Counted from the stretch's first letter, positions 6,615 through 52,228 are shown. The stretch is DNA of 64,000 nucleotides from Candidatus Uhrbacteria bacterium (GCA_016929435.1 JAFGIV010000005.1:23596-87595), one strand, 5' to 3'. Numbers and translations: made by a program. The notes: generated by a model from the letters alone, not told the origin.

Positions 6615-6681
6615 ACAGAAAAAAGGTTCATTGTTTTTTAAAAAAATGTTTTTTACCTAAAACCAGCTAAAATTTACCATA

Positions 6682-6710
6682 TTGACAGTATGCGCCACTG
6701 TTGATATACT
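6682..6710 (+). promoter_or_regulatory. Consensus sigma70 promoter (TTGACA, 17-bp spacer, TATACT)
   Basis: TTGACA at 6682-6687, 17-bp spacer, TATACT at 6705-6710. Predicted transcription start site near 6717. Confidence 0.6.
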
Positions 6711-6716
6711 AAACGT

Positions 6717-7072
6717 GTTGATAGATCATGTTCCTTACACAAAACAAGAAACAAGGGGATCTCTCCCGGAGCACGGTCTCGGAGCGAGTTCCCCCTTCTC
6801 TACTGATTCCGCACACCAACCTTAGAAACCAAAACAAAATTTCTAAAAATCTTGTGCTTGGTATCCTCCCGCTTGGGTGGCCACTACCAAGAATCGGTAA
6901 AGAAGTGCACTTGGGTTAGGGAATCATGTTCAGAGCAGGCGCTTTGCCTGCACCCCCACAGGGGGTATAGACAATGCGCCTGCATGAGCTACTTTCCCAC
7001 AAACCCCACGGCGTAAGATGCCTTTGAGACTACCATTTGGCTACACTTACGCCGTTTTTTTTATCCAAAAAA
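6717..7072 (+). ncRNA. Candidate ~345-nt structured non-coding RNA of unidentified class
   Basis: Strong promoter upstream and an intrinsic terminator at the 3' end (GGCGTAAG...CTTACGCC + TTTTTTTT at ~7024-7072). Multiple internal hairpins (CTTGGTA...TACCAAG; CAGGCGC...GCGCCTG; CCCCCACAGGGGG). Lower GC than neighbouring genes; the only ORF is 63 aa and not protein-like. Confidence 0.45.
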
Positions 7073-7088
7073 TACCTTTCCGCACCTA

Positions 7089-7117
7089 TTGACTGGCGTT
7101 GATTAAACCTATATATT
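7089..7117 (+). promoter_or_regulatory. Sigma70-like promoter (TTGACT, 17-bp spacer, TATATT) for the dksA-like gene
   Basis: Hexamer match with correct spacing. Confidence 0.45.
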
Positions 7118-7181
7118 GTTTACTGTTACCGGCCTGCCTGAAATCGGATCATGGCCGTATTATATAGCGGAAAACACGACT

Positions 7182-7553
7182 ATGAACAAGGACCTAATAA
7201 AGGAAATGGAAAGCCGGCTGAACAGCGAAAGGACCCGCCTTAAGGAAGAGTTGGAATCGTTTGCCAGCCAAAACCCGAAAAACTCCCAAGACTATAACGC
7301 CAACTTCCCCAACCTTGGGGATAAGGAGGACGAGAACGCCGAAGAGGTCGATACCTTCAGCACCAACCTGGCCCTGGAAAGGACCCTGGAATCAAACCTG
7401 AGGGATATTGACGATGCCCTTGACCGAATCGGTAAGGGCATCTACGGCATCTGCAAATACTGCGGAAAGGAGATAGACGAGAAACGCCTGCAGGCCAGAC
7501 CGGCCTCCAGCTCGTGTATAGAATGTAAGAAATCGTTCACTAGGGAAATCTAA
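7182..7553 (+). CDS. DksA/TraR-family C4-type zinc-finger protein
   Basis: N-terminal coiled coil, then CKYCGKEI...CIECK, a CxxC-x17-CxxC zinc finger. A TTG at 7116 is an alternative start. Confidence 0.8.
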   Translation: MNKDLIKEMESRLNSERTRLKEELESFASQNPKNSQDYNANFPNLGDKEDENAEEVDTFSTNLALERTLESNLRDIDDALDRIGKGIYGICKYCGKEIDEKRLQARPASSSCIECKKSFTREI

Positions 7554-7617
7554 CGAATCCCGTAACCGGCCTGACCGTTCCGTCGGTCCCCTTGGGACTT
7601 TCCCGCAGTGATGGGCC

Positions 7618-8121
7618 ATGCCAAACCTGAGCGAGTCCCCGAAAAAACAAGGACGTCCGTGGGCGCTTATCATGTCTGCGGCGGTTCTTTTGTCAGCGGA
7701 CCGCTGGTTCAAGGGGTTGGCAATGGCCACCGGAGCGGAGGGGCTTTGGGAAAATGCCTTCGGCCTGCCGGTTGACTTCCGGCTTTTCCTGAATCCCGGC
7801 ATTGTCTTCAGCCTGCCGCTGCCTGATCTCGTCTTCTGGCCGACAGCGACTTTGGCCGGCGGAGCCCTAATCTGTGCCTTGGCCAAAACCTGGAGACCGC
7901 AGCCGGCCGTGGCTACGGCCCTAATCTTCGTGGTCTTGGGCGGACTGTCCAATGTCGTTGACCGCATGCTGGTCGGTTCGGTAATCGATTACCTGATTTT
8001 CTTCGACTTGTCGGCCGTGAACATCGCCGACGGGATGATCCTGGGCGGGGCGATCGGGGCGTATTGGATAACGCGGAAAGACGGAAAGAACGGCTCTTTC
8101 GCAGCGGGAGGCAGGGGATAA
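7618..8121 (+). CDS. lspA: Lipoprotein signal peptidase (signal peptidase II)
   Basis: Four TM segments; conserved LGGLSNVVDRMLVGSVIDYL and NIADGMILGG motifs. Confidence 0.85.
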   Translation: MPNLSESPKKQGRPWALIMSAAVLLSADRWFKGLAMATGAEGLWENAFGLPVDFRLFLNPGIVFSLPLPDLVFWPTATLAGGALICALAKTWRPQPAVATALIFVVLGGLSNVVDRMLVGSVIDYLIFFDLSAVNIADGMILGGAIGAYWITRKDGKNGSFAAGGRG

Positions 8122-8206
8122 GTGTGGCGGGATAGACATGGAAGGCAGAAAACAAAAGAGGGGACGGATCAATCAGACCCGCCCCCTTTTTACAATCCAA
8201 TCCCTG

Positions 8207-8782
8207 CTAAAGATCCTGCAAGGTCTGCAAGAACTCCTCCTTTTTCCATTCCTCCCATTTCAATTTCACCCGAAAGAGAAAATATCTGTCGAAACCCCTG
8301 TATTTTTCAATATCCTCGACGAATTTTACTTCATCTGGACAAACTTGATCATCGAAAAAAGGCACTATGGGACGGATTACTTTTAGAACCACCATTCCAT
8401 TCCCCAAAAACTCCACCAGCTCGACTAACGATCCAAACCCCAGGGTACACTCCTCTATTTCCTCATTTCCCGAAAGGGATGAAGGGGATTTTGTTTTGTA
8501 CTGTATCACCCCATTCATACATATTCGATCCCCTTTTTGAGGGAGCTCACTTTGACCCTTATGCCCTTGACACAATTTTATATCTATCCCTGTTTCGACT
8601 TCTTTCGACTGATCCTTCGCCTGATTTTCCGTTTTTGACTGACCCTCAACCGCCTTCTCCTGCGCCGTATCCTGAACCTGACATGAATCCAGCCGTTCAG
8701 ACATGACGCTTATCCTGTATTGAAGGCTCACCAGCCACGAAGCGAAAAAAATACCTGTTACCGTCAGAATGATGCTTTTCAT
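8207..8782 (-). CDS. Hypothetical secreted/membrane-anchored protein in a low-GC islet
   Basis: 191 aa with an N-terminal hydrophobic segment and a good RBS (AGGAAGAGGA). The local drop in GC (8.13-8.9 kb) matches this ORF's composition. Confidence 0.55.
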   Translation of the reverse strand: MKSIILTVTGIFFASWLVSLQYRISVMSERLDSCQVQDTAQEKAVEGQSKTENQAKDQSKEVETGIDIKLCQGHKGQSELPQKGDRICMNGVIQYKTKSPSSLSGNEEIEECTLGFGSLVELVEFLGNGMVVLKVIRPIVPFFDDQVCPDEVKFVEDIEKYRGFDRYFLFRVKLKWEEWKKEEFLQTLQDL

Positions 8783-8979
8783 TGCGATATCCTCTTCCTT
8801 TTTCTATGGTCGTCACCTTTTCCGTGACGACATTTTTAAAATGTTCTTTCTCCTGCTCACCAACCTAATGATAGGGATAGCATAAAAACGCAATCCTGTC
8901 AAGCCTTAAACCCCAACGTTTTGACACCGAAAACCGTCTCGTGTAAGAATATCGCGCCTTAAAAAATAACCGCGAAAAA

Positions 8980-10521
8980 ATGCCCGCAAAAACCGTATCC
9001 GCGGCGGTCGTCGGACTGACGGCCGTTCCGGTAGAGGTGGAGTCCTCGGTCAGCCTAGGACTGCCGAAATTCCTGGTCGTCGGCCTGCCGGACGCCTCGG
9101 TCCAGGAATCCCGGGAACGGGTTACGGCCGCCGTGAAGAACAGCGGGCTGCCGTTCCCAAAGAACCGGCTGACCGTCAACTTGGCCCCGGCCGACATCCG
9201 GAAGGAGGGACCGTCCTATGACCTGCCCATCGCCGTCTCCATCCTGCTCAAGGGCGGGGCCCTTAAGCAGAAGGATATCGAGGGACGGCTCTTCCTGGGG
9301 GAACTGGCCCTGGACGGTCAGCTCCGTCCGGTGGCCGGCGTTCTCCCCGTCGTCCTGATGGCAATAGAGCAGGGATTCAGTGAAATATATGTCCCGTCCG
9401 GAAACGCCGCTGAAGCCGGTTTGGCCATTCGCGAGCCGAAAATCGCCGACCGGACCAAAATATACCCGGTCACCGACCTGGCAGGATTGGTCCGTCACCT
9501 AAGGGGAAAGGGGAGGATTGAACCGGTCTCCCCGTCCGAAGGCGACACCGAAACAACGGAAAAGGCCGATTCGGATTTCGATTTCGCCAACATCAAGGGA
9601 CAGCACCAGGCCAAACGGGCCCTGGAGATTGCGGCTGCCGGCGGCCACAATATCCTGCTTTCCGGACCGCCGGGAGCGGGAAAGACACTCCTGGCCCGCT
9701 CCCTTCCCGGAATCCTGCCTAAAATGACCTGGGAGGAAACCCTGGAGGTGACCAAGATATACAGCATCGCCGGACTGACCGGGCAGGGACGGGTGATCAC
9801 CCGCCGTCCTTTCCGTTCACCGCACCATACCGCTTCCGGGGCCTCCCTGATCGGCGGCGGCAGTTGGCCCAAGCCGGGTGAGGTCAGCCTGGCCCACCGG
9901 GGAGTGCTTTTCCTGGATGAGTTCCCGGAATTCACCCGCCAGGTACTGGAAAACCTACGCCAGCCGCTGGAGGACGGGTTTGTCACCATTTCCCGGGCGC
10001 AGTGCCGGCTCCGCTTCCCCACAAAGTTCATCCTGGTGGCGGCCCTGAACCCCTGCCCGTGCGGCTATGCCTCGGATCCCGACAGGGAGTGCACCTGCAG
10101 CCCGATGCAGATCGCCAGCTACGGCAAACGCATCTCCGGACCCATGCTGGACCGGATAGATCTCCATCTGGAGGTGCCCAAACTGGGGACCAAGGACATT
10201 TTTCGCGCACAGCCGGCGGAAAGTTCGGAGACTGTCCGCGGGAGGGTTCAGGCTGCCCGCGACCGCCAACAGGCCAGGTTCAACGACGGAAAGACGTTCA
10301 CCAACTCTGAAATGGGGCAGCAGGCCATCCTTCAGCACTGCGGGCTGGACAGGGAGGGGGAGAGGCTGATCGAATCGGCGGTTACCCGCCTGCATCTCTC
10401 GGCCCGCGCCTATTCCCGAATCCTGAAAATCTCCCGAACCATCGCCGACCTGTCCGGTTCGGAAAGGATAGCGGCGGAAAACGTGGCCGAGGCGCTGCAG
10501 TTCAGGGAACGGGGGAAGTGA
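8980..10521 (+). CDS. YifB/ComM-family Mg-chelatase-like AAA+ ATPase
   Basis: N-terminal Lon-like domain, Walker A (GPPGAGKT), Walker B (LFLDEF), and C-terminal ChlI motifs. Confidence 0.9.
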   Translation: MPAKTVSAAVVGLTAVPVEVESSVSLGLPKFLVVGLPDASVQESRERVTAAVKNSGLPFPKNRLTVNLAPADIRKEGPSYDLPIAVSILLKGGALKQKDIEGRLFLGELALDGQLRPVAGVLPVVLMAIEQGFSEIYVPSGNAAEAGLAIREPKIADRTKIYPVTDLAGLVRHLRGKGRIEPVSPSEGDTETTEKADSDFDFANIKGQHQAKRALEIAAAGGHNILLSGPPGAGKTLLARSLPGILPKMTWEETLEVTKIYSIAGLTGQGRVITRRPFRSPHHTASGASLIGGGSWPKPGEVSLAHRGVLFLDEFPEFTRQVLENLRQPLEDGFVTISRAQCRLRFPTKFILVAALNPCPCGYASDPDRECTCSPMQIASYGKRISGPMLDRIDLHLEVPKLGTKDIFRAQPAESSETVRGRVQAARDRQQARFNDGKTFTNSEMGQQAILQHCGLDREGERLIESAVTRLHLSARAYSRILKISRTIADLSGSERIAAENVAEALQFRERGK

Positions 10522-40842: not shown

Positions 40843-40953
40843 GGCCGTGATAGTTTGTTGTAGTCGGTGCGGATCGGCGGTGAAAGTCCCCGTGTGCGCC
40901 TACGCCTATGGCATTACGGACACGGTGAGGGGGGATTTTAGCAATAAAACAAA
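40843..40953 (+). repeat. Copy 1 of a ~110-nt repeated structured element
   Basis: About 85% identical to 46184-46293, with conserved ends GGCCGTGAT..GTTTGTTG and ..GGACACGGTGAGGGGG.ATTTTAGCAATAAAACAAA. Internal stem CCCCGTGT/ACACGG(TGA)GGGG; the variable central hairpin shows partly compensatory changes. Confidence 0.7.
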
Positions 40954-40978: not shown

Positions 40979-41068
40979 GGAGGGGTGCCTGAGAGGTCGA
41001 AAGGGACGCACTCGAAATGCGTTGTCCGGGCAACTGGACCGTGGGTTCGAATCCCACCCCCTCCGCCA
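40979..41068 (+). tRNA. tRNA-Ser (anticodon CGA), class II with a long variable arm
   Basis: GGAGGGG...ACGCA-CTCGAAA-TGCGT...long arm...GTGGG-TTCGAAT-CCCAC-CCCCTCC-G-CCA; 90 nt. Confidence 0.85.
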
Positions 41069-41305: not shown

Positions 41306-43264
41306 ATGAGAAGAATGGGGCGGGTAAAAGGGTTTAAGAAATTTTTTGCGCTCAGAAAAAATACTCTCGAGAAAGGCCGGTGGTTTTATGGGCCACGGAC
41401 GAGGCGCACCCGTGTTGAAGTTCCGCGGTCGCAAAGGCTGTTTTCCGGCGCCCTAAGGGGCGGACTCACTGTTTTTATCTCTGTTTTGATAGTTTGCGGG
41501 GTTGCTTATGCCGGCACCATAACTCCGCCGAGCGGAACACCCTCGGCCCAATTCTACACTCTTTCGGAAATCTACAACTTTATAACCGACAATACCGCCG
41601 CAACCGAGGGTGACCATGATTTCACCTTTTCAGACGGCCTAGCCGGCACAGGCCGCACCCTAACCGAAATTTACGGCGCCTTGGCCGGTTTGATTTCCGC
41701 CGATCAGGTCAAAAAAGACAGGACTTATCTCGGGGTAACGGGCACCTTAACTCCCGATGGCGGCACGGCCGTTGTCGCCGACCTGTTCAACGGCAAGACC
41801 GCCAACCTGACGGGCGATTGGAATCTGGACGGGGGGACCCTTAGTCTTGCCTGCGATACCGCAACCTTTGATGGTGCGGGAAATTTAGTTTCCGATACCC
41901 ATGACGGAGACGGAGACGGAACGAATAGGTGGTGCATAACGGATACTGATGACGTAACGGCCGCTGATGTGCTATCCGGCAAAATGGCGTGGATTAACGG
42001 CGCTGCCGCAACAGGCACCATGGCCAATAACGGCGCGTTCGCCCTAACCGCCAGCTCAACGGATCAGGAAATCGCCGCCGGCTATTGGGACGCGGGCACT
42101 TTGGCGGGAGACGCGGATTTGGTGGCGGGAAACGTCAGAAACGGCGTCAGCATATTCGGGGTAGTCGGCAACATGGTTGCGGGCTACCTTTTTGGGGACG
42201 GCGATGCTTCGAAAGTGCTTACTTCCGCTGCGGGCAATGACGGGGACAGCTCCTATTTGGCCGACAACCTGACGGCATCAACGGTTAAGAAGGGCGTTGG
42301 TTTCGGGGTGGGTCCGCTTACGGGGCTGTTTTTCGGCGACACCGACGCTTCCAGGGTTTTGACCACCGCGGATGGCGGCGGTGCGGCAAAGGGAACCTAT
42401 GACGCGTCAAATTTGTCGCCGACAACGGTTAGAAAAGGGACGGCTTTCGGGGTTTCCTCAACCGGCGCGTATTCTGGCTATCCGGGGTCTGGATGGGCAG
42501 GGTCAGGCGGTTCGACGGGCGCCTATTCGTGTGAATATTGGGACGATGACGGTAACCCGGGAACGCCTGATGTCGCCACGGGATGGTATTGGTTTGAGGA
42601 CGGTAACGGCGACGGTGACGATGCCGATCCGGATGATCCGGAGGACGGTCTTTGTGTCCAGGCCGCATCACGCGCCGCCGGCTTGTCGTGGAACGGCTAC
42701 GATTACGAAACCAATTACGATGCCACCTACATTGCGGGCTATACGTGTTTCGGCAGCTTCCCCAACGGCACGGTCAGTTCGTATAACGGCCTTGACTCCA
42801 CCGGCGCGCTCGATACGACATGGAATGACGGGGATTGCGCGTTGTGCCAAGCCGATTGTTATGATGGGGTAAAGGACTTGCCCGACCAAGGGTCATACAC
42901 GTGCGAGGGCGGGTGTGTTGCCGGGGCCGACGGCTATAACGGGCCCCTAACGCCGGGGGCTTTGGGCAATTGGAAGGGAACCAGATTGCCGAGTTCCGCC
43001 GAATTTTTCGGATTCTGTAGCACTGGCGGGACTAATTCGGGGGTAGGCGAATACGAGACGGGCTGCTCATCCGATGTTACGGGCGGCACCTATGGCGTAC
43101 AGGTCGGCAGAACGGGTGAATGCATAGACCCCATTGGCTGGGAATGGCTTTCGGAGCAGCACTCCACCACCTCTGCGCGGGTAGCCGGCAGTTACGCCTG
43201 TTCCAACTTCAGTTACGGTTATGTCTACTTTGGCTTCAGGTTCCGTGCCGTCTTCCGCCCGTAG
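41306..43264 (+). CDS. Large Gly/Asp/Thr-rich cell-surface protein with an N-terminal membrane anchor and internal repeats
   Basis: TM segment LTVFISVLIVCGVAYAG. Repeated ~40-aa units (…NVRNGVSIFGVVGNMVAGYLFGDGDASKVLT… / …VKKGVGFGVGPLTGLFFGDTDASRVLT… / …VRKGTAFGVSSTG…). Cys-rich C-terminal region. The start is uncertain (41306 or a downstream M). Confidence 0.65.
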   Translation: MRRMGRVKGFKKFFALRKNTLEKGRWFYGPRTRRTRVEVPRSQRLFSGALRGGLTVFISVLIVCGVAYAGTITPPSGTPSAQFYTLSEIYNFITDNTAATEGDHDFTFSDGLAGTGRTLTEIYGALAGLISADQVKKDRTYLGVTGTLTPDGGTAVVADLFNGKTANLTGDWNLDGGTLSLACDTATFDGAGNLVSDTHDGDGDGTNRWCITDTDDVTAADVLSGKMAWINGAAATGTMANNGAFALTASSTDQEIAAGYWDAGTLAGDADLVAGNVRNGVSIFGVVGNMVAGYLFGDGDASKVLTSAAGNDGDSSYLADNLTASTVKKGVGFGVGPLTGLFFGDTDASRVLTTADGGGAAKGTYDASNLSPTTVRKGTAFGVSSTGAYSGYPGSGWAGSGGSTGAYSCEYWDDDGNPGTPDVATGWYWFEDGNGDGDDADPDDPEDGLCVQAASRAAGLSWNGYDYETNYDATYIAGYTCFGSFPNGTVSSYNGLDSTGALDTTWNDGDCALCQADCYDGVKDLPDQGSYTCEGGCVAGADGYNGPLTPGALGNWKGTRLPSSAEFFGFCSTGGTNSGVGEYETGCSSDVTGGTYGVQVGRTGECIDPIGWEWLSEQHSTTSARVAGSYACSNFSYGYVYFGFRFRAVFRP

Positions 43265-43518
43265 TGATTTCCCGTCTTGACGATTTGGCAATTGGATTGA
43301 TTTGAATATTTGAACCTCGAAATTCATTTGTAAACCTTTCGTCGTCAAAGACGGCAAAGGGGCCATCGAAAACCGTGTCGCAGGCTCGGGACGTGTCGCC
43401 CGGATCGAGTGCCTTCGGGACTTTCTGGCTGAAATGCCACAGTTTGCTTTTGGGTTTTTTCACGGGGTTGCGGCCTATCGCCAAATGGTTATGTGGTATG
43501 ATTATTCCGTAGGCACTT

Positions 43519-45783
43519 ATGGGCAGGGAAATTCCGAATAGAAATTTATTTTTTGCCTTGTTTTTAACGCTTCTCATAGGCGGGTCTTTTTCGCTTTTCG
43601 GTAAATCCGCCCTGGCCTCGTCCACCGACGGCACTGTTGATGGGAGTTTCAAATACGCTTGGGGAGAGAACGTCGGATGGATTAATTTCGGCTGCGATAA
43701 CTGCAGTGTCCACGTTACGGACTCCGCTCTTTCCGGCCATGCTTTGGGCGAAACCGTCGGTTGGATAAATCTGGAAGACGTGGTGAACGACGGCCAGGGC
43801 AGCCTGTCAGGCTACGCTTGGGGAGAGAACGTCGGTTACATAAAATTCAATCCGGCCGGCGGCGGGGTAAACATTGACCCTTCCGGTGAATTTACCGGAT
43901 CGGCTTTGGGGGAAAACGTCGGCTGGGTGGTTTTTGGCGGGGATTACGGGGTCAAGACCGATTGGCGGCCGCAGGGCGCAAGGCCTGCCTGCAACAACTC
44001 CTTGGATGATGACGGCGACGGCAAGATCGATTACCCGGCAGACCCGGGATGTTCTTCCTTGGACGATACGGATGAGACGGATCCCGTTTTTGGCGGAGGC
44101 GGAGGCGGAGGCGGAGGCGGTGGAGGCGGAGGAGGCGGGGGTTTGCCGCCAGAGGCGTACAATCCGCCGACAGCGCCCGAAGGCGGGTTTGGGATTTTAA
44201 TAAACGACAACGCTGCGGAGACCGATTCCCGGAGGGTTACCCTGACCCTAATGGGCGGATCGGATACCAAGACGGTTTGGATTTCCGAAAAATTTCAATT
44301 TCCGGAAGGTTTCCAGGTTTCCTACGATTCTTCCTTGCCGCAAGTCCCGGTTTCTTTTGACCTGTCCTCGGGCGAAGGCACAAAAATCGTTTACGCCAAG
44401 TTCTGCACTCAGTGGGGCCGGTGTTCCGATGTTGTTTTTGACGGCATAATAAGGGTCGGGGAAACGGTGGTTGAAAAGATAGTGGAAGTCCCGAAAAAAA
44501 TCGTTGAGGAAATCAGGAAGGTCCCGGGAGTTATCGCCCCGCTAATTCCCGATTTTTCGAAGCCCAAGCCACCCGAAGTGCCGGATGGGAAATCGGCGCT
44601 CAGGGAAGCCCCCCCGGTCTTTCGGGGCAAATGGCGGCTTCTGCCCTCTGACCCGATCAGGGAGTTTGTCTTGGCTCCCCTGCCCAAAGGAATCAGGAAC
44701 CTGGCCAGAAAATTTCCGGAACTCGAGATAACCCTTAGGGAAGTCGGCGTCAGCAGAATTACGGATGTCGCCAAACTAAAATCCGTAAAACTGACCCTGC
44801 CCGGGATGACGGAAAGAGTCGGATTGCCGACGGCAAGGATTGAACCCGGCAAGTTTGCCCCGCCCCAAGGCGTTCCCGTAGCCAGGCTTTCTCCGGCGGC
44901 TAAACAGCAATTGCCGACGGAAATCGTCTTTGCCAAAACCGGCGGCGAATTAGTTGATTTCAGCATTGCCCTGACGGTTAACGATAGGGGCGAACCGCAG
45001 CAGAGAATTTCCACGATTTCCGGCAAGCCCCTGCAATTGGCGGTGAAACCCGACAGTCCGGTCAGGGGCGTCAGGGGTTACGTGGTGTTCAGGTCCAGGG
45101 CCAGCCAAGCCGCATCCGTTGATGTCCCGCTCGGTTCCTTGTTGGCATCGGTGGTTTTTGCCAACCCGGCTTTTGCCAAGACGCAGGACCAGCCCGTCAG
45201 GGTTGAGGAAAAGCTGGTTTTGCTGGAGTTCGAGTATGCCGATCCAGACGGCGACGGAATCTATACCGCGGAGATTGACGCGCCGTTGGTTGCGGGCGAA
45301 TACGAGATCATCACGGTCATGGATTTCGATGATTCGGGGCTCGGGAAAAAGGAAATCCGTTTGACCGTTGTGGTCGATCCCGAAGGGTACGTTTATGAGC
45401 GGGACGGCGACAGGGAAACCCGCATCCCGGGAGCCGTTGTCTCCATTTATTGGCTGAATCCCGAAACGAAACAATATGAGATGTGGCCGGCAGGGGAATA
45501 CCAGCAGGAAAATCCGCAGACCACCGATGTCAGGGGCACCTACTCGTTTTTGGTGCCAGAGGGCCACTATTACCTTAAGGCCGAGACTCCGGGTTATCTT
45601 GCCTACGACGGCAGGCCGTTTGAGGTCAGGGAAGGCTCCGGCGTCCACATCAATATTGAAATCAAGACTAAATACCGGTGGCTGAAGATCGTCGATTGGA
45701 GAACGATTTTACTGGCCATCGTAATAATTCTGCTGCTCTATAACTTTTATCGTGATAAAGCCAGAGAGCGGTCGGTGAGGTAA
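43519..45783 (+). CDS. Surface protein with four WGENVGWINF repeats, a poly-Gly linker, a CarboxypepD_reg-like domain and a C-terminal TM anchor
   Basis: Signal peptide. Four repeats of (A/Y)(W/L)GE(N/T)VGW(I/V)NF. G17 linker encoded by a (GGCGGA)n tract at 44092-44145. The region DVRGTYSFLVPEGHYYLKAETPGY. C-terminal helix ILLAIVIILLLY. Confidence 0.7.
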   Translation: MGREIPNRNLFFALFLTLLIGGSFSLFGKSALASSTDGTVDGSFKYAWGENVGWINFGCDNCSVHVTDSALSGHALGETVGWINLEDVVNDGQGSLSGYAWGENVGYIKFNPAGGGVNIDPSGEFTGSALGENVGWVVFGGDYGVKTDWRPQGARPACNNSLDDDGDGKIDYPADPGCSSLDDTDETDPVFGGGGGGGGGGGGGGGGGLPPEAYNPPTAPEGGFGILINDNAAETDSRRVTLTLMGGSDTKTVWISEKFQFPEGFQVSYDSSLPQVPVSFDLSSGEGTKIVYAKFCTQWGRCSDVVFDGIIRVGETVVEKIVEVPKKIVEEIRKVPGVIAPLIPDFSKPKPPEVPDGKSALREAPPVFRGKWRLLPSDPIREFVLAPLPKGIRNLARKFPELEITLREVGVSRITDVAKLKSVKLTLPGMTERVGLPTARIEPGKFAPPQGVPVARLSPAAKQQLPTEIVFAKTGGELVDFSIALTVNDRGEPQQRISTISGKPLQLAVKPDSPVRGVRGYVVFRSRASQAASVDVPLGSLLASVVFANPAFAKTQDQPVRVEEKLVLLEFEYADPDGDGIYTAEIDAPLVAGEYEIITVMDFDDSGLGKKEIRLTVVVDPEGYVYERDGDRETRIPGAVVSIYWLNPETKQYEMWPAGEYQQENPQTTDVRGTYSFLVPEGHYYLKAETPGYLAYDGRPFEVREGSGVHINIEIKTKYRWLKIVDWRTILLAIVIILLLYNFYRDKARERSVR

Positions 45784-45791
45784 GGAAATCT

Positions 45792-46154
45792 ATGAATAAA
45801 CCAAAAACAACCCCGGTCCTTGTCGCGGTTCTGCTCGTCGGCACCGTCTTTTTGGGCGTCAGGTACTTTTCCGTCGCCAAGGAGCTTCGTCAGACCCGAA
45901 GCGCACTGCAGACCCAAACGGTTAACGAAAAAGTTCTGGAGTTCACCAAATTCTTCATTGGCGAGGTTTTGAGGGCGGACGGTGAAATTGATTTTGACAC
46001 AAGGTTGAAACTGGAGATTGCCGTCGGAAATCTGGATGATGGGGAAATTTTGAGCCAATGGAAGAGGTTTGTTGGCTCAGAGACCGAAGCCGAAGCGCAG
46101 GAAGAAGTCAAAAATCTCCTGGAATTGCTGGTGGGCAAGGTGAAGGTCAGGTAA
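45792..46154 (+). CDS. Small hypothetical membrane-anchored protein (120 aa)
   Basis: RBS AAGGAAA; N-terminal TM; coiled-coil C-terminus. Confidence 0.5.
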   Translation: MNKPKTTPVLVAVLLVGTVFLGVRYFSVAKELRQTRSALQTQTVNEKVLEFTKFFIGEVLRADGEIDFDTRLKLEIAVGNLDDGEILSQWKRFVGSETEAEAQEEVKNLLELLVGKVKVR

Positions 46155-46183
46155 AAAACCGTGTGTAACGGGAAACAAAACCG

Positions 46184-46293
46184 GCCGTGATGGTTTGTTG
46201 CGGTCGGTGCGGACGTGCGGCAAGAGTCCCCGTGTGCGCCTATGCAAGGGCATGGCGGACACGGTGAGGGGGAATTTTAGCAATAAAACAAAT
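46184..46293 (+). repeat. Copy 2 of the ~110-nt repeated structured element
   Basis: Direct repeat of 40843-40953. Followed at ~46300-46345 by a hairpin + U-run (ACCGTCC..GGGCGGT-TTTTTT), then a low-GC island. Confidence 0.7.
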
Positions 46294-46409
46294 AAGGGTT
46301 TGTCGAGACAAACGCAAGACCGTCCGGAGGGGCGGTTTTTTGATGAAATTGACTATCTTGTGCTTATGCTGTACTGTAGCCTGTCACAGTCTGGTATACT
46401 AAACATAAT

Positions 46410-46949
46410 ATGGGTCAACCAGATAAGCTCCGAAATTTAATCCTATATATCCTGTCCCACCAGGATTATCAGGAGGGCGGCGTAAAGAAGCTGAACAAGC
46501 TGCTTTATTTTATTGATTTTTATTTTTATCGCGATCATGAGCGGTTAATTTCTGATGCAAAATACGCCAAGGCCCCAATGGGGCCAGTCATTGATTCTTA
46601 TCAGGAGGTATTTGCCAAACTTGTTGCGGACGGAGACTTGAGGCTGATTGAAGATGTCAGCACGAAGGTATACAAGCCACTTCGTCAGGCTGAGGTAGGG
46701 ATGTTTACTTCCGAGCAGGTCGATCACATATCCAAGGTGCTTGATCGATACGGAAAATTGTCGGGACGCGATCTCGAGTGGATCTCCCACCAGCAGCAGC
46801 CGTGGGTTCTGACCGAGAATTTTGGCGACATCATTGATCCCGACCTTGCCTTGTTGATTGATGATGAGGTGAGCGATTCCGACACCAGTTTTATAGAAAA
46901 CGAGAATCTTAGGAACGAGCTGCAAAATCTCGCCAACCAGGCCGATTAG
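46410..46949 (+). CDS. Panacea-domain (DUF4065, SocA-like) protein; putative antitoxin
   Basis: KLRNLILYILSH...GGVKKLNKLLYFIDFYFYRDHERLISDAKYAKAPMGPV matches the DUF4065/Panacea N-terminal core. Low-GC gene. Confidence 0.65.
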   Translation: MGQPDKLRNLILYILSHQDYQEGGVKKLNKLLYFIDFYFYRDHERLISDAKYAKAPMGPVIDSYQEVFAKLVADGDLRLIEDVSTKVYKPLRQAEVGMFTSEQVDHISKVLDRYGKLSGRDLEWISHQQQPWVLTENFGDIIDPDLALLIDDEVSDSDTSFIENENLRNELQNLANQAD

Positions 46950-46962
46950 GGAGAGGCTTGCT

Positions 46963-47304
46963 ATGGGAGAAATCGTAATCGAGGTAATTGAGTCGTTGGA
47001 TAGACAGGTCAACGACCTTTCCTCGTCGGATTCAAAAATCAGGAAGCTGTTCAATAAACAGCGGCGGTTCATGTCACTGAACCCGCATTACTCATCGTTA
47101 GGAAGGAAGAAATTGCAGAACGTATTTGATCAGTACGGGAACCAATTGGAGGAAATCAGGCTAAACAGGTACTGGCGGATCGTATTTATCGTCAGGGATG
47201 AGGGGCAGAGGGTGGTTTGGTTGAAGCTTTGCGATCACGATGAAATTGCAAGAAACAACCGACTGTTCATTGATGGCCATCCGGAAGGGCCGCCGGCCAT
47301 TTGA
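46963..47304 (+). CDS. RelE/ParE/HigB-fold putative toxin (113 aa)
   Basis: C-terminal pattern KKLQNVFDQYGNQLEEIRLNRYWRIVFIVRDEGQRVVWLKLCDHDE resembles the RelE/HigB core (YRI.F.v.d...v.iL.i.dHd). It lies 13 nt after the Panacea gene. Confidence 0.5.
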   Translation: MGEIVIEVIESLDRQVNDLSSSDSKIRKLFNKQRRFMSLNPHYSSLGRKKLQNVFDQYGNQLEEIRLNRYWRIVFIVRDEGQRVVWLKLCDHDEIARNNRLFIDGHPEGPPAI

Positions 47305-47313
47305 TTAATTTGA

Positions 47314-47415
47314 GTGGGGAAGCCCCCGGACAAAACCGCCCTTCCGGGCGGTTTTGTCCGGAACCCGTTGGATTATTTGACCCCTTTTTTCAAACCCAAA
47401 AGGGGCTTTTTGGGG
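47314..47415 (+). terminator. Two consecutive terminator hairpins after the putative TA pair
   Basis: GGACAAAACCGCCC-ttcc-GGGCGGTTTTGTCC, then CCCCTTTTTTcaaacccAAAAGGGG + CTTTTT. Confidence 0.55.
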
Positions 47416-47537
47416 AGAGAGCCGGGTCTCCCGAATCTTGACCTATTCGGACAGGAATGCTAAGGTGAGTCCGTTGCGGGCGATGGTGCCCATAAACGGC
47501 ATTCTTTAAAAATTTTAGAACGGAGGAAAAGAGTAAA

Positions 47538-48536
47538 ATGGGTTTTAAAAAAACAAAGAAGATCAAAAGGTTAATGGAAAGATATCCTTTCGTGTCCGAC
47601 ATCCTGTCGGAAGACCTGGAGCCGCTCGACGGCAACGGCGGAACGGAGGTTAACGAACTTGCCGTCAGCGTAGAGACGGCCGACGGGAACCTGATGTTTC
47701 GCCGCGCCAACAATGTCGGCCTCGGCGACTCGTCGTTCGCATTCTGCATCAAGGGGGGCAAACACGAGGGCCAGGTCATGAAAAAACGGGGGGAATATTT
47801 CTTTGCCGTTGACGGCGACGGGAAAATCATAAATCGTCTCAATTGGCCAAGGAATGACGGGGAAAGCAGGCAAATAGGGGACGAGATTTACGCCCACAGT
47901 ATATTTTGGGTGGAAAGGGAATCCGGCCTTGACTCTACGGAAAGCCGGATGCCAATTTGGGACAAGGTCCGGTACCTTGTCTGGGTTACGGTAGAGGCGT
48001 GGCATGCCCATACAAAGGGCGAATTATTCAGTGAAAGTTATTCGCGTTCGGTCAGGGTCACGATCTATCGCGCGCCGGGTCAGGGTTTCAGGCGGTTGTA
48101 TCAGTCATCAAGCCCTTATAGGAATCTCTCGCTCGACAAGCGAATGGTGGAACGCAGCCTGAAAAGGGGGGACTGTTGTGTCGTGGGCATGCTGGGCATG
48201 CTTTACGAGTTGGGTATGTCTTTTCGAGACAAGGTGTGCCCAAACGGGGTGAATCGGAGGCCTAATAGTGGGGGTAGGGTTTTCTGGATTTTCGAAAACT
48301 TTTGGATAGAGCGCGTGGTGCGAGCCGGACACGATCGAATAACGATCGGGGAAGGTCCGGCATATATCACGGGGATGGAGGGTCAAGTCTACGTTGTGTT
48401 TGAGTTTTTCCGGAATTCGGACATGAACGTTCCCGACCAGCGAGGTACCGTTCCCCAAATCCGCAACCTCGTGAGAAAGGCAATGCGTATTTTTGAGGAA
48501 AACCCGAGGATACGCAGGGCTTTCCGGTCCGTGTAG
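47538..48536 (+). CDS. Hypothetical protein (332 aa), no recognisable domain
   Basis: RBS GGAGGAAAAGAG; low-GC codon usage. Rich in W/R/F residues. Confidence 0.55.
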   Translation: MGFKKTKKIKRLMERYPFVSDILSEDLEPLDGNGGTEVNELAVSVETADGNLMFRRANNVGLGDSSFAFCIKGGKHEGQVMKKRGEYFFAVDGDGKIINRLNWPRNDGESRQIGDEIYAHSIFWVERESGLDSTESRMPIWDKVRYLVWVTVEAWHAHTKGELFSESYSRSVRVTIYRAPGQGFRRLYQSSSPYRNLSLDKRMVERSLKRGDCCVVGMLGMLYELGMSFRDKVCPNGVNRRPNSGGRVFWIFENFWIERVVRAGHDRITIGEGPAYITGMEGQVYVVFEFFRNSDMNVPDQRGTVPQIRNLVRKAMRIFEENPRIRRAFRSV

Positions 48537-48689
48537 TATGCAGTAGGTAGGTAACGTGTGGCATAAGGGGTGTGCGTAGGGAAATCCGCGCACCCCCTAT
48601 TTTTTTTGCCGCCCTTTCCCGAATGTGCTATAATAAAAAAATCAAACGTCCCACCGGGACCGCATAACTCAAAGCTAAGCGTAAATCGT

Positions 48690-49307
48690 ATGGGAAACAG
48701 GTTTTTGGCCATTGGCGTCTCCGTGCTCGTTTTTGCCTTTGCGACCGGGGCACATGCCGTTGCCCCGAACGGGGAAAGCGGAACGGGAAACCGCGTTCAG
48801 CAACAGGCCCAAACCGCCAACCGGGGCGAAACAACCCAGCTCCAGAACGGCGAGCGGCAGCAGGCACGGGCACCGGGGAATTCGGACCTGGCCGAACGGA
48901 GAAGGAGTCGGGTGGCTGATGCCGTGCGGGAGATGCTGCAGGTCGCAGACAGGAGCGGCGGAATCGGCCAGCAGGTGCGGGATATTGCCCGGGCCCAAAT
49001 CCAGGGCCATGAGGGACTGGAGGCAAACCTGGAAAGGATCCGGGGCCGAAGCGGTCTTGCCAGGTTTTTTTTCGGTCCGAACTACGGTGAGATAAACAGC
49101 GCCCAAAGGGCACTGGAAACGAACAGGGAACAGGTCAGGGAGCTGAACCGGGCCCAAGGGCAGGTCGTCGATCAGGGTGAAGCGCAGGAATTGGCCCAAC
49201 AGATCCGGGTTTTGGAGGAGGTTAACCTGGAGATCGAAGGTTCCCTGGAGGGGGAACGGAAGGGGTTCAGCCTGTTTGGCTGGATATTCAGGGCCTTTTC
49301 CGACTGA
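48690..49307 (+). CDS. Secreted Gln/Arg/Glu-rich coiled-coil protein
   Basis: Signal peptide MGNRFLAIGVSVLVFAFATGAHA; heptad-like Q/E/R repeats. Confidence 0.55.
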   Translation: MGNRFLAIGVSVLVFAFATGAHAVAPNGESGTGNRVQQQAQTANRGETTQLQNGERQQARAPGNSDLAERRRSRVADAVREMLQVADRSGGIGQQVRDIARAQIQGHEGLEANLERIRGRSGLARFFFGPNYGEINSAQRALETNREQVRELNRAQGQVVDQGEAQELAQQIRVLEEVNLEIEGSLEGERKGFSLFGWIFRAFSD

Positions 49308-49379
49308 CCTGCCTTTTTGGGGCGGGTTTCGGTACGGTTTTGTCGTTATCCCCCCGTTTCCGTGACAAAACGCACGCCT

Positions 49380-50396
49380 ATGAATACCCTAAGGGTCGGC
49401 TTGGCGGAATTTCCCCCGCTGGTATCCGGCGATTACGGCCATTTCCGCGGTTTTGAGGTTGACCTGTGGGAAACGGTCGCCGGAGAGCTTGGTTTTCAGT
49501 TCGAATACCGGAAATACCCGTTCCAGAAACTGATTCCGATGCTGGCCGAGGGGAAGCTGGATGTTGCCATGGCGGGGATCACCATCAACGAGGATAGGGA
49601 AAGGATCATCGATTTCTCCCACCCGACCATGGATTCCGGACTGGTGATTGCGGTGGATCGGGACCGTAACCGGTTGAGGCTGTCCGAAACGGTCAGGGCG
49701 GTCGTTGGTTCGGGGTACCGGACCGTAAGCCTGACCCTGCTTGCCGTCCTTTCCTTCATCTTCGCCCTGGGGAACCTCCTGTGGCTGGCGGAAAGGGGGG
49801 TCGGGACGTTCAGTGAAGGTTATTTTCCCGGCGTTTTCGAGGCCTCCTGGCTGGTGTTCTCTTCCGTTACGACCGTCACGTTCGGGGATTTTTATCCGAA
49901 TACCTGGCTCGGCCGGGCAGTCGTTTTCGTTTCCGTAGTGGGGGGTGTCGGCATCCTGGCGACTTTGGTGGCGCGGTTCACCGCCTTTTTGGCGACCAGG
50001 AAGGTCTGGCGGGAAATCGCCGGGATTTCGGACCTGTCCGGCAGGAAGGTGGCGGCCGTCAGCGGATCCACCAGCGAGCAGGCCCTGACGAGACTGGGCA
50101 CGGATGTCACCGGCACGGAAACGGTCGGTGAGGCCCTCATGCTCCTGGAACGGCGGGAGGTGGAGGCGGTCGTTGCCGATGCCCCTGTCTTGGCGCATCA
50201 CCTCAAGGACAGCAGGGGAGGTCGAGTGGAGACCGTTGGGGATGTTTTTGACGGGCAGAAATACGGCATTGCCCTTCAACAGGGGAGTCCCCTGCGGGAA
50301 AACGTCAACCGGACCCTGCTCCGCCTGATCGAGTCGGGCCGGTACGGCGCGCTTTACCGCCAGTGGTTCGGCCAGGATCCGTCGATGGAGATATAG
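49380..50396 (+). CDS. Ionotropic-glutamate-receptor-like ligand-gated channel (SBP_bac_3 domain interrupted by a K+-channel pore module)
   Basis: N-terminal SBP lobe (RVGLAEFPPL..GFEVDL...KLDVAMAGITINEDR). M1 helix, then a pore helix + TVTFGDFYP filter-like sequence and an M2 helix. Second SBP lobe (KVAAVSGSTSE...VEAVVADAPVL). No obvious signal peptide; a TTG at 49317 is an alternative start. Confidence 0.65.
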   Translation: MNTLRVGLAEFPPLVSGDYGHFRGFEVDLWETVAGELGFQFEYRKYPFQKLIPMLAEGKLDVAMAGITINEDRERIIDFSHPTMDSGLVIAVDRDRNRLRLSETVRAVVGSGYRTVSLTLLAVLSFIFALGNLLWLAERGVGTFSEGYFPGVFEASWLVFSSVTTVTFGDFYPNTWLGRAVVFVSVVGGVGILATLVARFTAFLATRKVWREIAGISDLSGRKVAAVSGSTSEQALTRLGTDVTGTETVGEALMLLERREVEAVVADAPVLAHHLKDSRGGRVETVGDVFDGQKYGIALQQGSPLRENVNRTLLRLIESGRYGALYRQWFGQDPSMEI

Positions 50397-50592
50397 GAGA
50401 GGCTGTTTTGCGTTGCGTTTTGTCCGGTGCCGAAACCATGACGATCCGAAGGCTTCCAAACGCGAAAAGGAAAGGTCCGTTTTTGACGCAGGCGTCTTGG
50501 CGGACGGGATCGCCCGAATCGTCAGGATCGAATCCGATACGGTTTAGGGTGTCTTCCCGGCAGATTGAAAGACCTCGCTTGAGGGGGTATGG

Positions 50593-51186
50593 TTGGCCTG
50601 TATGAGGGAACCCTATTCGGAAAAAATCGGCCAAGGAAACCACGGGGAGGTTTTCGGTGGGGAAAGAACGGTCGTAAAAAGGACCTTTGTCAGCCATTTG
50701 AGTGCCGGTAAGGAAGCGTTGGTAGGCAAGGAAATGCCTAACATAGTCAGGTATTTCAACCTTAAGAAGGGGGACGGCGGGGACATTGAACTGGAGATGG
50801 AAAAGCTGGAGGATCCAGTTTTTTCAGCGGCAGAAAAGGAGGTTATCGGTAGGTTTTTCGGGTTTGTGGAACGCAGAATAGTCGAAATACGGAAAGAACA
50901 CCCGGAGTATCTGGAATTTCTCGATTTTGAGGAGATTTTCGGAAAGCTCAAGGAGCATTATTCCGAAAAAATAAGGGAATTCACAGGTTGTCCAGAGGCA
51001 AAAAATTATTTTCAGGATGCGCTTTCTTGTTTTGGGGCGGACGGGCGCATCCATAAAGTCCTCGGGGACGCATTTATTGGCATCAGATCGCTGTTGACTA
51101 ACGGTGTGGCTCCCGACGATCTTAAGGCTGAACACGTCATGTATTCGGAAAATGAAGATGCCTATAAGCTGATTGACATCATTTAG
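50593..51186 (+). CDS. Small protein-kinase-like fold protein (197 aa), atypical
   Basis: Gly-rich loop-like EKIGQGNHGEVF, VVKRTF (beta3 Lys?), catalytic-loop-like APDDLKAEHVMY (cf. HRDLKPEN) and YKLIDI (DFG-like). Weak; the similarity is Bud32/Rio/KdkA-like in size only. Confidence 0.4.
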   Translation: MACMREPYSEKIGQGNHGEVFGGERTVVKRTFVSHLSAGKEALVGKEMPNIVRYFNLKKGDGGDIELEMEKLEDPVFSAAEKEVIGRFFGFVERRIVEIRKEHPEYLEFLDFEEIFGKLKEHYSEKIREFTGCPEAKNYFQDALSCFGADGRIHKVLGDAFIGIRSLLTNGVAPDDLKAEHVMYSENEDAYKLIDII

Positions 51187-51313
51187 TACGGAATGTTGAA
51201 GGCTTATGGATCGGCTTGCGATAAGCGTCGGTATTTTCCGAAAATTGCCATTTGATGGCCTTTCGTTTTTATGGATACGGCGAATATGTCTCAACCTTTA
51301 AAACCCCGCAAAC

Positions 51314-51571
51314 ATGTCAATTAAGACCCGAATCGCGATCTATTTGGCCGTCCTGCTGCTCGGTCTGGCGGCCTTTGCCTATGTCTCCAAACCGACCTGG
51401 TCGCCTTGGTATTGCGGCCAGTTTTCCGGGTTCCATTCACATGCCTGGAACAACTCCTTCAGCCAATCCAGCCTTTGCGTGAAGAACGGGTGTCGGGTGA
51501 TCAAGCTGCAGGAGATGGACGACCCTGACCTGTTTGATGACGACGGCTACCTTTTCCGCTGCGTGCGGTAA
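51314..51571 (+). CDS. Small secreted Cys-containing protein (85 aa)
   Basis: Signal peptide; four Cys residues; D-rich C-terminus. Confidence 0.45.
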   Translation: MSIKTRIAIYLAVLLLGLAAFAYVSKPTWSPWYCGQFSGFHSHAWNNSFSQSSLCVKNGCRVIKLQEMDDPDLFDDDGYLFRCVR

Positions 51572-51724
51572 CCCGTTCGGCGGCCGAATGTCCCCAACCC
51601 CTAGTTATCGGCCCTTGTTCTCGGTGATGGTCCGTTCGACGGACAACACCGTTTGTTGACGGTATCTGTTTGCTGTGTTAGGTTACGGTTGGTTCGTTAT
51701 TGGTTTCAAGAGCAAGGAGGAAGA

Positions 51725-52228
51725 ATGTCAGTAGAAAAAGTGGAAAAAATCGAGTATCCGTTCCTTCCGGAAGGCCGGGAAATAAGGTATGTCGGCCCGG
51801 ACGACCGGTTCATGGCGATGGCCAAGGATTTCGCCAGGAGCAATTCCCTGGACAGGGTCATGCCTGGGGCGGCGGTGGTGGTGAGGGACGATGTCGTGTT
51901 GGGAATCGGCGCCAACGGCAGCGATTACCACCGGACACACGGATGTAAGAGGGTGGCCTTAGGCTGCCGGACCGGTGAGGGGTATGATCTGTGCGAAGGG
52001 TGTCACCCGAAGAACCACAGTGAAGCAAGCGCCATCCGCGAAGCCCAAAAAAACGGCCACGACACGGCCGGTGCTGACCTTTATCTTTGGGGCCACTGGT
52101 GGTGCTGCCAACCGTGTTGGGAGGCGATGGTAAGGGCGGGGATCAGTCGCGTCTTCCTCTTGGAGGGAAGCGAAATCCTGTTCAACAAGGACCATCCCGG
52201 CAACATCGTCGGGCGGCAATTCGAGTGA
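51725..52228 (+). CDS. CMP/dCMP deaminase zinc-binding family (dCMP deaminase-like)
   Basis: Perfect SD AAGGAGG 5 nt upstream. Zinc motifs HSEASAI (H[AC]E) and WWCCQPCWEA (PCxxC). Confidence 0.8.
   Translation: MSVEKVEKIEYPFLPEGREIRYVGPDDRFMAMAKDFARSNSLDRVMPGAAVVVRDDVVLGIGANGSDYHRTHGCKRVALGCRTGEGYDLCEGCHPKNHSEASAIREAQKNGHDTAGADLYLWGHWWCCQPCWEAMVRAGISRVFLLEGSEILFNKDHPGNIVGRQFE

Follow-up and report, generated by a model that had tools for sequence, protein, structure and literature searches.

Within a 64,000-nucleotide (nt) stretch of DNA from a metagenome-assembled genome of Candidatus Uhrbacteria bacterium (GCA_016929435.1 JAFGIV010000005.1:23596-87595), which we call the window and to which all positions given without a locus name refer, we analyzed two adjacent genes, panA and panT, that are likely to form a toxin-antitoxin (TA) pair. 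The first encodes a Panacea-domain protein, and the second encodes a small protein predicted to adopt the RelE/ParE fold. A first-pass annotation made from the sequence alone had placed a Panacea/DUF4065 gene here, with an open reading frame (ORF) of 113 amino acids (aa) starting 13 nt later, and the coordinates of both were found to be exact. The two genes and the signals around them are as follows.

46349 to 46377, plus strand: promoter-like site, with a -35 element TTGACT (46349 to 46354), a 17-nt spacer, and a -10 element TACTGT (46372 to 46377), read from the sequence
46410 to 46949, plus strand: panA ORF, 179 aa, candidate antitoxin, Pfam SocA_Panacea
46950 to 46956, plus strand: Shine-Dalgarno-like GGAGAGG, 6 nt 5′ of the toxin ATG, read from the sequence
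46963 to 47304, plus strand: panT ORF, 113 aa, candidate toxin, RelE/ParE fold by AlphaFold2 and Foldseek
47326 to 47361, plus strand: perfect 16-bp stem-loop 3′ of the toxin gene, without a U-tract
47382 to 47405, plus strand: second, terminator-like hairpin, with a T-run to 47415, from a terminator scan

The panA product, named "SocA family protein" at NCBI, matched Pfam PF13274 (SocA_Panacea) with an E value of 2.5e-16 and 61 bits (gathering score, 25.7), the match spanning model positions 1 to 112 of 113. Its Panacea/DUF4065 domain is a standalone one (residues ~28 to 132); a conserved IDPDLALLI motif comes next, then an acidic linker that varies, and finally a C-terminal helix motif, L-x-x-E-L-x-x-L-A-N, that is kept among homologues. 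We found ~100 homologues of PanA, mostly in Patescibacteria. In tblastn searches of phage and plasmid collections, PanA matched only a distant protein of a Methanobacteriales virus (28% identity), and the toxin gave zero matches. PanA is acidic, with an isoelectric point (pI) of 4.64, and its partner is basic (pI 8.85), a charge pairing that we count in favor of the TA reading.

The panT product, which carries the NCBI name "hypothetical protein JW899_00745," appears from database searches to be nearly an orphan in sequence. Its relatives made up 14 clusters at 90% identity among 5.8 billion proteins, and a profile search of 1.84 billion proteins returned 8 representatives of the toxin family at 50% identity. 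The protein scored 22.8 bits against ParE_like (Pfam PF24732), under the cut-off of 24.4; this subthreshold match recurred in 14/14 homologues and was the only recurrent family signal at the sequence level. Its matches to Gp49 (E = 0.13; 12.8 bits against a cut-off of 23.9) and to YafQ TIGR00053 (E = 0.08; 13.5 bits against a cut-off of 87) were also below their cut-offs.

On the other hand, the predicted structure was informative. An AlphaFold2 model built on a 14-sequence alignment had a predicted local distance difference test score (pLDDT) of 85.5 and a predicted template modeling score (pTM) of 0.77, and its strands (E) and helices (H), i.e., E5-8, H10-22, H24-39, E49-56, E61-66, E71-78, E83-91, and H92-97, follow the order b-a-a-b-b-b-b-a that is characteristic of the RelE/ParE superfamily. 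When the model was compared with the PDB by Foldseek, 50/50 of the matches listed were RelE/ParE-superfamily toxins, among them YoeB, RelE, YafQ/HP0894, HigB, ParE2, PfiT, and the RelE domain of Cami1. The top match was Sa2YoeB (7v6w_F; E = 3.8e-5; template modeling [TM] score of 0.77 normalized to the target), and ParE2 first appeared in the list at rank 20, with the RNases YoeB, RelE, and YafQ ranking above it. On the strength of this model, the RelE/HigB-like identity proposed for the ORF in the first-pass annotation is confirmed at the level of the fold, but not at that of the sequence family, where the matches stayed under threshold.

A TTGAC-N17/18-TAnnnT arrangement occupied an equivalent site 5′ of panA in 5/5 close loci aligned, and the site at 46349 to 46377 is a putative promoter. 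An upstream terminator at ~46316 to 46345 closes the preceding unit, and panA and panT are separated by a gap of 13 nt. A search for an operator-like inverted repeat upstream of panA gave short, weak palindromes only. The double terminators described 3′ of the pair were found to be two hairpins, of which the second has a T-run and the first has no U-tract; the first, in a segment that folds at -53.1 kcal/mol with a z of -3.4 (47305 to 47425), is likely to be a transcript end or a stabilizer, and the second (47382 to 47415) was not conserved in other loci.

When we compared the window by blastn with the closest other locus (L007 to L009, 80% nucleotide identity), only 46348 to 47287 aligned, a stretch that begins at the promoter-like site and stops near the toxin stop codon. 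We limited the module to ~1 kb because the DNA homology to its nearest relative stops at these two points, and the cassette, as read from the sequence, appears to be self-contained, consisting of the promoter and the two genes. An identical 6-kb Logan contig exists.

The pair was found to recur as a unit. In a scan centered on PanA, with one genome taken per species, 18 genome loci had a close PanA (51 to 68% identity), and the toxin homologue was the next ORF downstream in 18/18 of them. The gap between the two genes across loci was mostly -4 to +13 nt, while two called overlaps were larger, probably due to over-extended start calls. In a scan of metagenomes centered on the toxin, PanA was directly upstream in 19/22 loci, and the three exceptions were two loci at contig ends and one 5′-truncated remnant (L036). 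Distant Panacea loci from Methanobrevibacter and Bacilli/Tenericutes (L028 to L031) differ in their neighboring ORFs and were not considered further.

Both genes were present at 47 loci, which sorted into 26 groups without any flanking ORF in common. We failed to find any conserved third gene across the independent loci except for the housekeeping gene clpB in one lineage, and the largest of the 26 groups was linked only through clpB. In a groundwater Patescibacteria contig (L002, 4269 to 6779), the pair lies between tsaD and tsaE, with the toxin stop overlapping the tsaE start by 4 nt, and has thus been inserted into a pair of housekeeping genes. At other loci, it neighbors a ParE/Phd pair and a KAP NTPase (L005) or has Fic proteins nearby (L021 and L038). 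ORFs that resemble large serine recombinases by eye lie <3 kb from the cassette at two unrelated loci (L022, 6 to 1490; L054, 5717 to 6280), hinting at possible vehicles for moving it. At nearly every locus, the G+C (GC) content of the pair was below that of the flanking DNA, with hosts ranging from 0.31 to 0.60 in GC content.

Decayed copies were present as well. At L024 (4500 to 4900), in another Ca. Uhrbacteria metagenome-assembled genome, an intact PanA is followed by a frameshifted toxin, and at L036 (2417 to 3022), a toxin lacking its first ~15 residues lies directly after a MazG-like 99-aa ORF, without PanA. Decay of the toxin beside an intact antitoxin is the pattern expected of a TA system, and we read the L024 locus in this way.

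The pairwise-identity matrices of PanA and the toxin were correlated (r = 0.74; Mantel, 0/2000), and this co-divergence is compatible with a complex between the two proteins, but no proof of one. Both genes were under strong purifying selection, with ratios of nonsynonymous to synonymous substitution (dN/dS) against the closest relative (L007) of 0.036 for panA and 0.072 for panT. Such selection would also fit a nontoxic, domesticated pair in which a RelE-fold protein, e.g., a regulator or a ribosome-associated factor, depends on the Panacea protein to carry out a housekeeping function; in addition, one lineage keeps the pair near clpB, and toxicity is so far predicted. However, we consider a housekeeping pair to be very unlikely in view of the patchy distribution over 26 unrelated contexts, the GC content consistently under that of the flanks, the association with recombinases and other TA/defense genes, and the existence of frameshifted and truncated toxin copies. 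This patchiness, low GC content, neighborhood, and decay fit accessory mobile modules, not housekeeping genes.

The Panacea domain, the toxin fold, the strict adjacency (18/18), the variable context, and the co-divergence together lend good support to a TA pair, and the addiction- or defense-type Panacea/RelE-fold combination suggested by the first-pass annotation appears to be borne out by the sequence comparisons and the model. We therefore regard 46349 to 47361 as likely to be a self-contained, horizontally mobile, bicistronic TA cassette of the PanAT type in the chromosome of this Ca. Uhrbacteria, a member of the Patescibacteria/candidate phyla radiation (CPR), with PanT as the predicted toxin and PanA as the protein predicted to neutralize it. 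Several results speak against this interpretation. The 113-aa protein is below every curated sequence-family threshold, PADLOC and PHROGs gave no match for it, and searching PDB sequences with profiles built from toxin alignments of 14 and 28 sequences returned chance matches only, with no toxin among them. In addition, PanA has no DNA-binding domain that would account for autoregulation.

In the proposed cassette, its own promoter would drive panA and then, 13 nt on and behind a strong ribosome-binding site, the 113-aa toxin. PanA would bind the toxin directly and hold it inactive in the style of type II systems. We infer this mode because direct contact is how published standalone Panacea antitoxins neutralize (PMC10440598), and PanA proteins have been established experimentally as direct neutralizers of diverse toxins (PMC8832971, PMC10440598). 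Either the Panacea core or the conserved C-terminal helix may contact the toxin, or the two may do so together; other PanA proteins neutralize by means of appended terminal elements, with Panacea as a possible sensor (PMC10440598). If PanA were lost or triggered, be it through loss of the cassette, through stress, or by an infecting phage, the toxin would be free to arrest growth. Toxicity, binding-mediated neutralization, the molecule targeted, and the biological role are thus all predictions.

Regarding the target, K28, K32, Q33, D56, E64, R66, H92, and D93 were invariant in 30 distinct toxin homologues, and R72 (28/30 homologues) and K88 were near-invariant. In the model, the conserved arginine, lysine, histidine, and acidic residues sit on or after the strands of the sheet, and the active site would lie on the β-sheet face, formed by E64, R66, H92, and D93 together with R72 and K88. 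An invariant E/R/H/D set is typical for the RNase branch of the RelE/ParE superfamily, and the catalytic residues of YoeB are E46, R65, H83, and Y84. When the toxin was aligned by hhalign with E. coli YoeB, using a query that was checked to be identical to 2a6q, R72 fell opposite R65 and Q52 opposite E46, although at a probability of 0.1 the alignment was not significant; its manual extension placed H92-D93 opposite Y82-H83.

An RNase is favored over a gyrase poison by this residue conservation, by the topology-consistent YoeB alignment, and by the ranking of the structural matches. The toxin is most likely a ribosome-dependent mRNA endonuclease of the RelE/YoeB type, an assignment to which we give about an even chance. 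Counting against it, hhalign alignments with provisional sequences of E. coli RelE and YafQ were not significant, and position 52, opposite E46 of YoeB, is Q here and E in just 15/30 homologues and is thus not conserved. The mapping of the putative active site leans on topology and on an insignificant alignment. Furthermore, the RelE/ParE fold by itself does not separate RNase toxins from gyrase poisons (PMC10440598).

A ParE-type toxin in the same cassette, which would poison DNA gyrase by trapping gyrase-DNA cleavage complexes and so block replication, is unlikely, yet deserves attention for several reasons. The sole family signal at the sequence level is the ParE_like one, ParE2 and PfiT structures are present among the Foldseek matches, and ParE is among the Conserved Domain Database (CDD) matches of the Panacea partners reported by Kurata et al. 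2022 (PMC8832971). However, the ParE_like match is under threshold, the best structural matches are the YoeB, RelE, and YafQ RNases, with ParE2 only from rank 20, and the toxin family has its invariant E, R, H, and D residues on or next to the strands of the sheet. ParE toxins, to our knowledge, have no conserved catalytic residues.

It is also conceivable, but quite doubtful, that the 113-aa protein is the founding member of a branch within the RelE/ParE fold that is restricted to Patescibacteria and has a new target or chemistry. Judging from its own invariant constellation, its action would then be unlike both the A-site mRNA cleavage of RelE and the gyrase poisoning of ParE; PanA would be a phage or host-contact sensor, and the cassette would be an abortive-infection device widespread in ultra-small episymbiotic bacteria.

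The first-pass annotation had drawn the pair into a larger island at 46294 to 51600, together with the genes downstream, for which the following features were recorded.

47538 to 48536: 332-aa ORF, no significant Pfam family
49317 to 50396: GluR0/iGluR-like channel, 359 aa, with an SBP_bac_3 ligand-binding domain split by an Ion_trans_2/Lig_chan pore (Pfam)
50593 to 51186: 197-aa ORF, GC content of 0.466, Pkinase match with an E value of 0.1, no PDB sequence match
51653 to 52228, beyond the end of the proposed island: dCMP-deaminase-type protein (Pfam)

Some of the functions proposed for these genes held up. The glutamate receptor-like channel is the one with SBP_bac_3 and ion channel domains by Pfam, and the 245-aa and 85-aa ORFs, which had been called secreted, have N-termini that look signal-peptide-like by eye. 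The label of a mini-kinase did not hold for the 197-aa ORF given its poor Pkinase match, although its glycine-rich GQGNHGEV...VVKR and DLKAEH motifs are reminiscent of the N-lobe and catalytic loop of protein kinases; the ORF terminates directly behind LIDII, and none of the frames continues it. The 245-aa, 197-aa, and 85-aa ORFs have no significant Pfam family, and PADLOC and PHROGs returned nothing for the remaining unknown ORFs.

The product of the 332-aa ORF is one of a conserved family of proteins, ~334 aa in length and without a Pfam domain, that has members throughout Patescibacteria (Giovannonibacteria, Azambacteria, Paceibacterota, and WWE3). Residues ~236 to 300 of this copy depart from the family consensus and have very low model confidence; its AlphaFold2 model had a pLDDT of 70.9, and its fold matches in the PDB were not meaningful (TM score of ~0.2). 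It had been put forward as an effector associated with the TA pair, and we rejected this role on the basis that it had no Pfam, PADLOC, or PHROGs match and that two of its homologues lie in ordinary neighborhoods free of Panacea genes.

The composition of the region was compared with the length-weighted window mean (0.58; standard deviation, 0.04). Per-gene GC contents were 0.469 for panA, 0.474 for the toxin gene, 0.529 for the 332-aa ORF, 0.589 for the 245-aa ORF, 0.605 for the channel, and 0.554 for the 85-aa ORF, so that the only clear outliers within 46294 to 51600 were the TA pair and the 197-aa gene. We find it barely credible that this interval is one horizontally acquired low-GC island with the 332-aa protein as its effector. 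It is true that the 197-aa gene matches the TA pair in its low GC content and that, for all genes from 41306 to 52228, directly after tRNA-Ser, the GC content at third codon positions (GC3) does not exceed about the window mean (0.53 to 0.74), compared with ~0.77 to 0.83 on either side. However, the genes at 48.6 to 50.4 kb have a window-typical GC content of 0.59 to 0.61, and no integrase or transposase domains were found among the scanned ORFs. The homology to the nearest relative stops at the cassette borders, and the flanking genes are not common to the other PanA-toxin loci, which argues against a co-transferred block; a 332-aa homologue is likewise absent from the conserved flanks of those loci. 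The downstream genes (the 332-aa, 245-aa, GluR0-like channel, 197-aa, and 85-aa ones) are thus unrelated neighbors, outside the system.

The longer interval from 41306 to 52228, which also holds two large proteins of 652 and 754 aa, one without a Pfam match and the other with a subthreshold CarboxypepD_reg match, may be a heterogeneous variable region that is broader than the claimed island. A second low-GC patch is located at 6000 to 9000 of the window (0.46 to 0.53) and contains a DksA/TraR-type zinc-finger protein at 7116 to 7553 and an 82-aa ORF at 8138 to 8386, with a GC content of 0.42 and no family match.

As had been noted previously, the region is directly preceded by a copy of a repeat, copy 2, which ends at 46292.

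40843 to 40953 and 46183 to 46292: imperfect direct repeat of ~110 nt, 84 to 93% identity

Copy 1 precedes tRNA-Ser(CGA) (40979 to 41068) by 25 nt, and copy 2 falls within the 3′ part of a 120-aa gene, followed by a small hairpin and the intrinsic terminator (46316 to 46345). The hairpin CCCCGUGUGCGCC...GGCGGACACGG is common to both copies. The repeat had no Rfam match, was found only in this genome among the compared loci, and gave 0 matches when its exact two-core pattern was searched for in metagenome contigs; on these grounds, we rejected it as an island border or attachment (att) site. It was not counted in the module because the cassette begins ~55 nt downstream, past the terminator. It could be a small RNA or a leader element, or an old duplication.

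The reduced genomes of Patescibacteria have been hypothesized to largely lack TA systems, and ultra-small episymbiotic bacteria are generally thought to have shed such defenses (PMC12455944). The locus described here would add a Patescibacteria-wide, sequence-distinct toxin family of the RelE/ParE fold to the catalogue of Panacea partners, and it suggests that a compact, promoter-carrying TA cassette moves among streamlined CPR genomes, even into the tsaD-tsaE pair. For annotation purposes, JW899_00745 can be relabeled as a putative PanT toxin of the RelE/ParE fold. Our findings extend the published PanAT surveys incrementally and hold no new principle.

PanAT systems were defined by Kurata et al. 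2022, who reported at least 88 toxin-Panacea domain combinations, including those with mRNA interferases and ParE (PMC8832971). The portion of their Dataset S1 considered here lists HigB/RelE/YoeB/ParE-like Panacea partners by HHpred, pT15/T14 from Methanobrevibacter and pT31/T28 from Taylorella, marked as untested, and the term Patescibacteria does not occur in that portion (PMC8832971). The combination of Panacea with a RelE/ParE-fold partner is thus already known, and the novelty lies in this toxin family, in its occurrence across Patescibacteria, and in the cassette with its defined limits. The pair shares with PanAT systems (PMC8832971, PMC10440598) a Panacea antitoxin without an extra N-terminal domain, a tight bicistron with the antitoxin first and the toxin second, a patchy, mobile distribution, and a partner with a classical toxin fold; the features of membership found here are the Panacea domain and the adjacency of the two genes amid unrelated neighborhoods. 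It differs from them in that its toxin family is tiny and sequence-distinct and its PanA has a conserved acidic C-terminal tail.

SocAB, the type VI TA system of Caulobacter, has the SocA/Panacea domain in its antitoxin as well, and PanA could by analogy, instead of neutralizing through binding alone, be a proteolytic adaptor through which ClpXP receives the toxin and constantly degrades it. This is highly improbable in spite of the shared domain and a weak match of PanA to NCBIfam SocA_antitoxin (E = 3.2e-5), since PanA scored 23.7 bits against the SocA equivalog, which has a cut-off of 190. SocB, which targets the DnaN sliding clamp, is another kind of toxin than the RelE/ParE-fold partner present here. 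Moreover, the PanA proteins tested form complexes with their toxins and neutralize them directly (PMC8832971, PMC10440598).

The YoeB, RelE, and YafQ endonucleases provide the best structural matches to the toxin (Sa2YoeB 7v6w, Thermus thermophilus RelE, an archaeal RelE, and YafQ) and resemble it in being small and basic proteins. Unlike them, however, the toxin has no significant sequence similarity to these families, is 113 aa long compared with 84 to 95 aa, and is paired with a Panacea protein, whereas their antitoxins are YefM, RelB, and DinJ; relative to YoeB, the topological alignment also places an H92-D93 dyad where YoeB has Y82-H83. With ParE toxins, it has in common the superfamily fold and the recurrent subthreshold match to PF24732, whereas it lies below the gathering cut-off of that family and its ParE structural matches rank lower than those of the RNase members. 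We know of no invariant catalytic-looking residue set in ParE proteins that is comparable to the one in the present toxin family.

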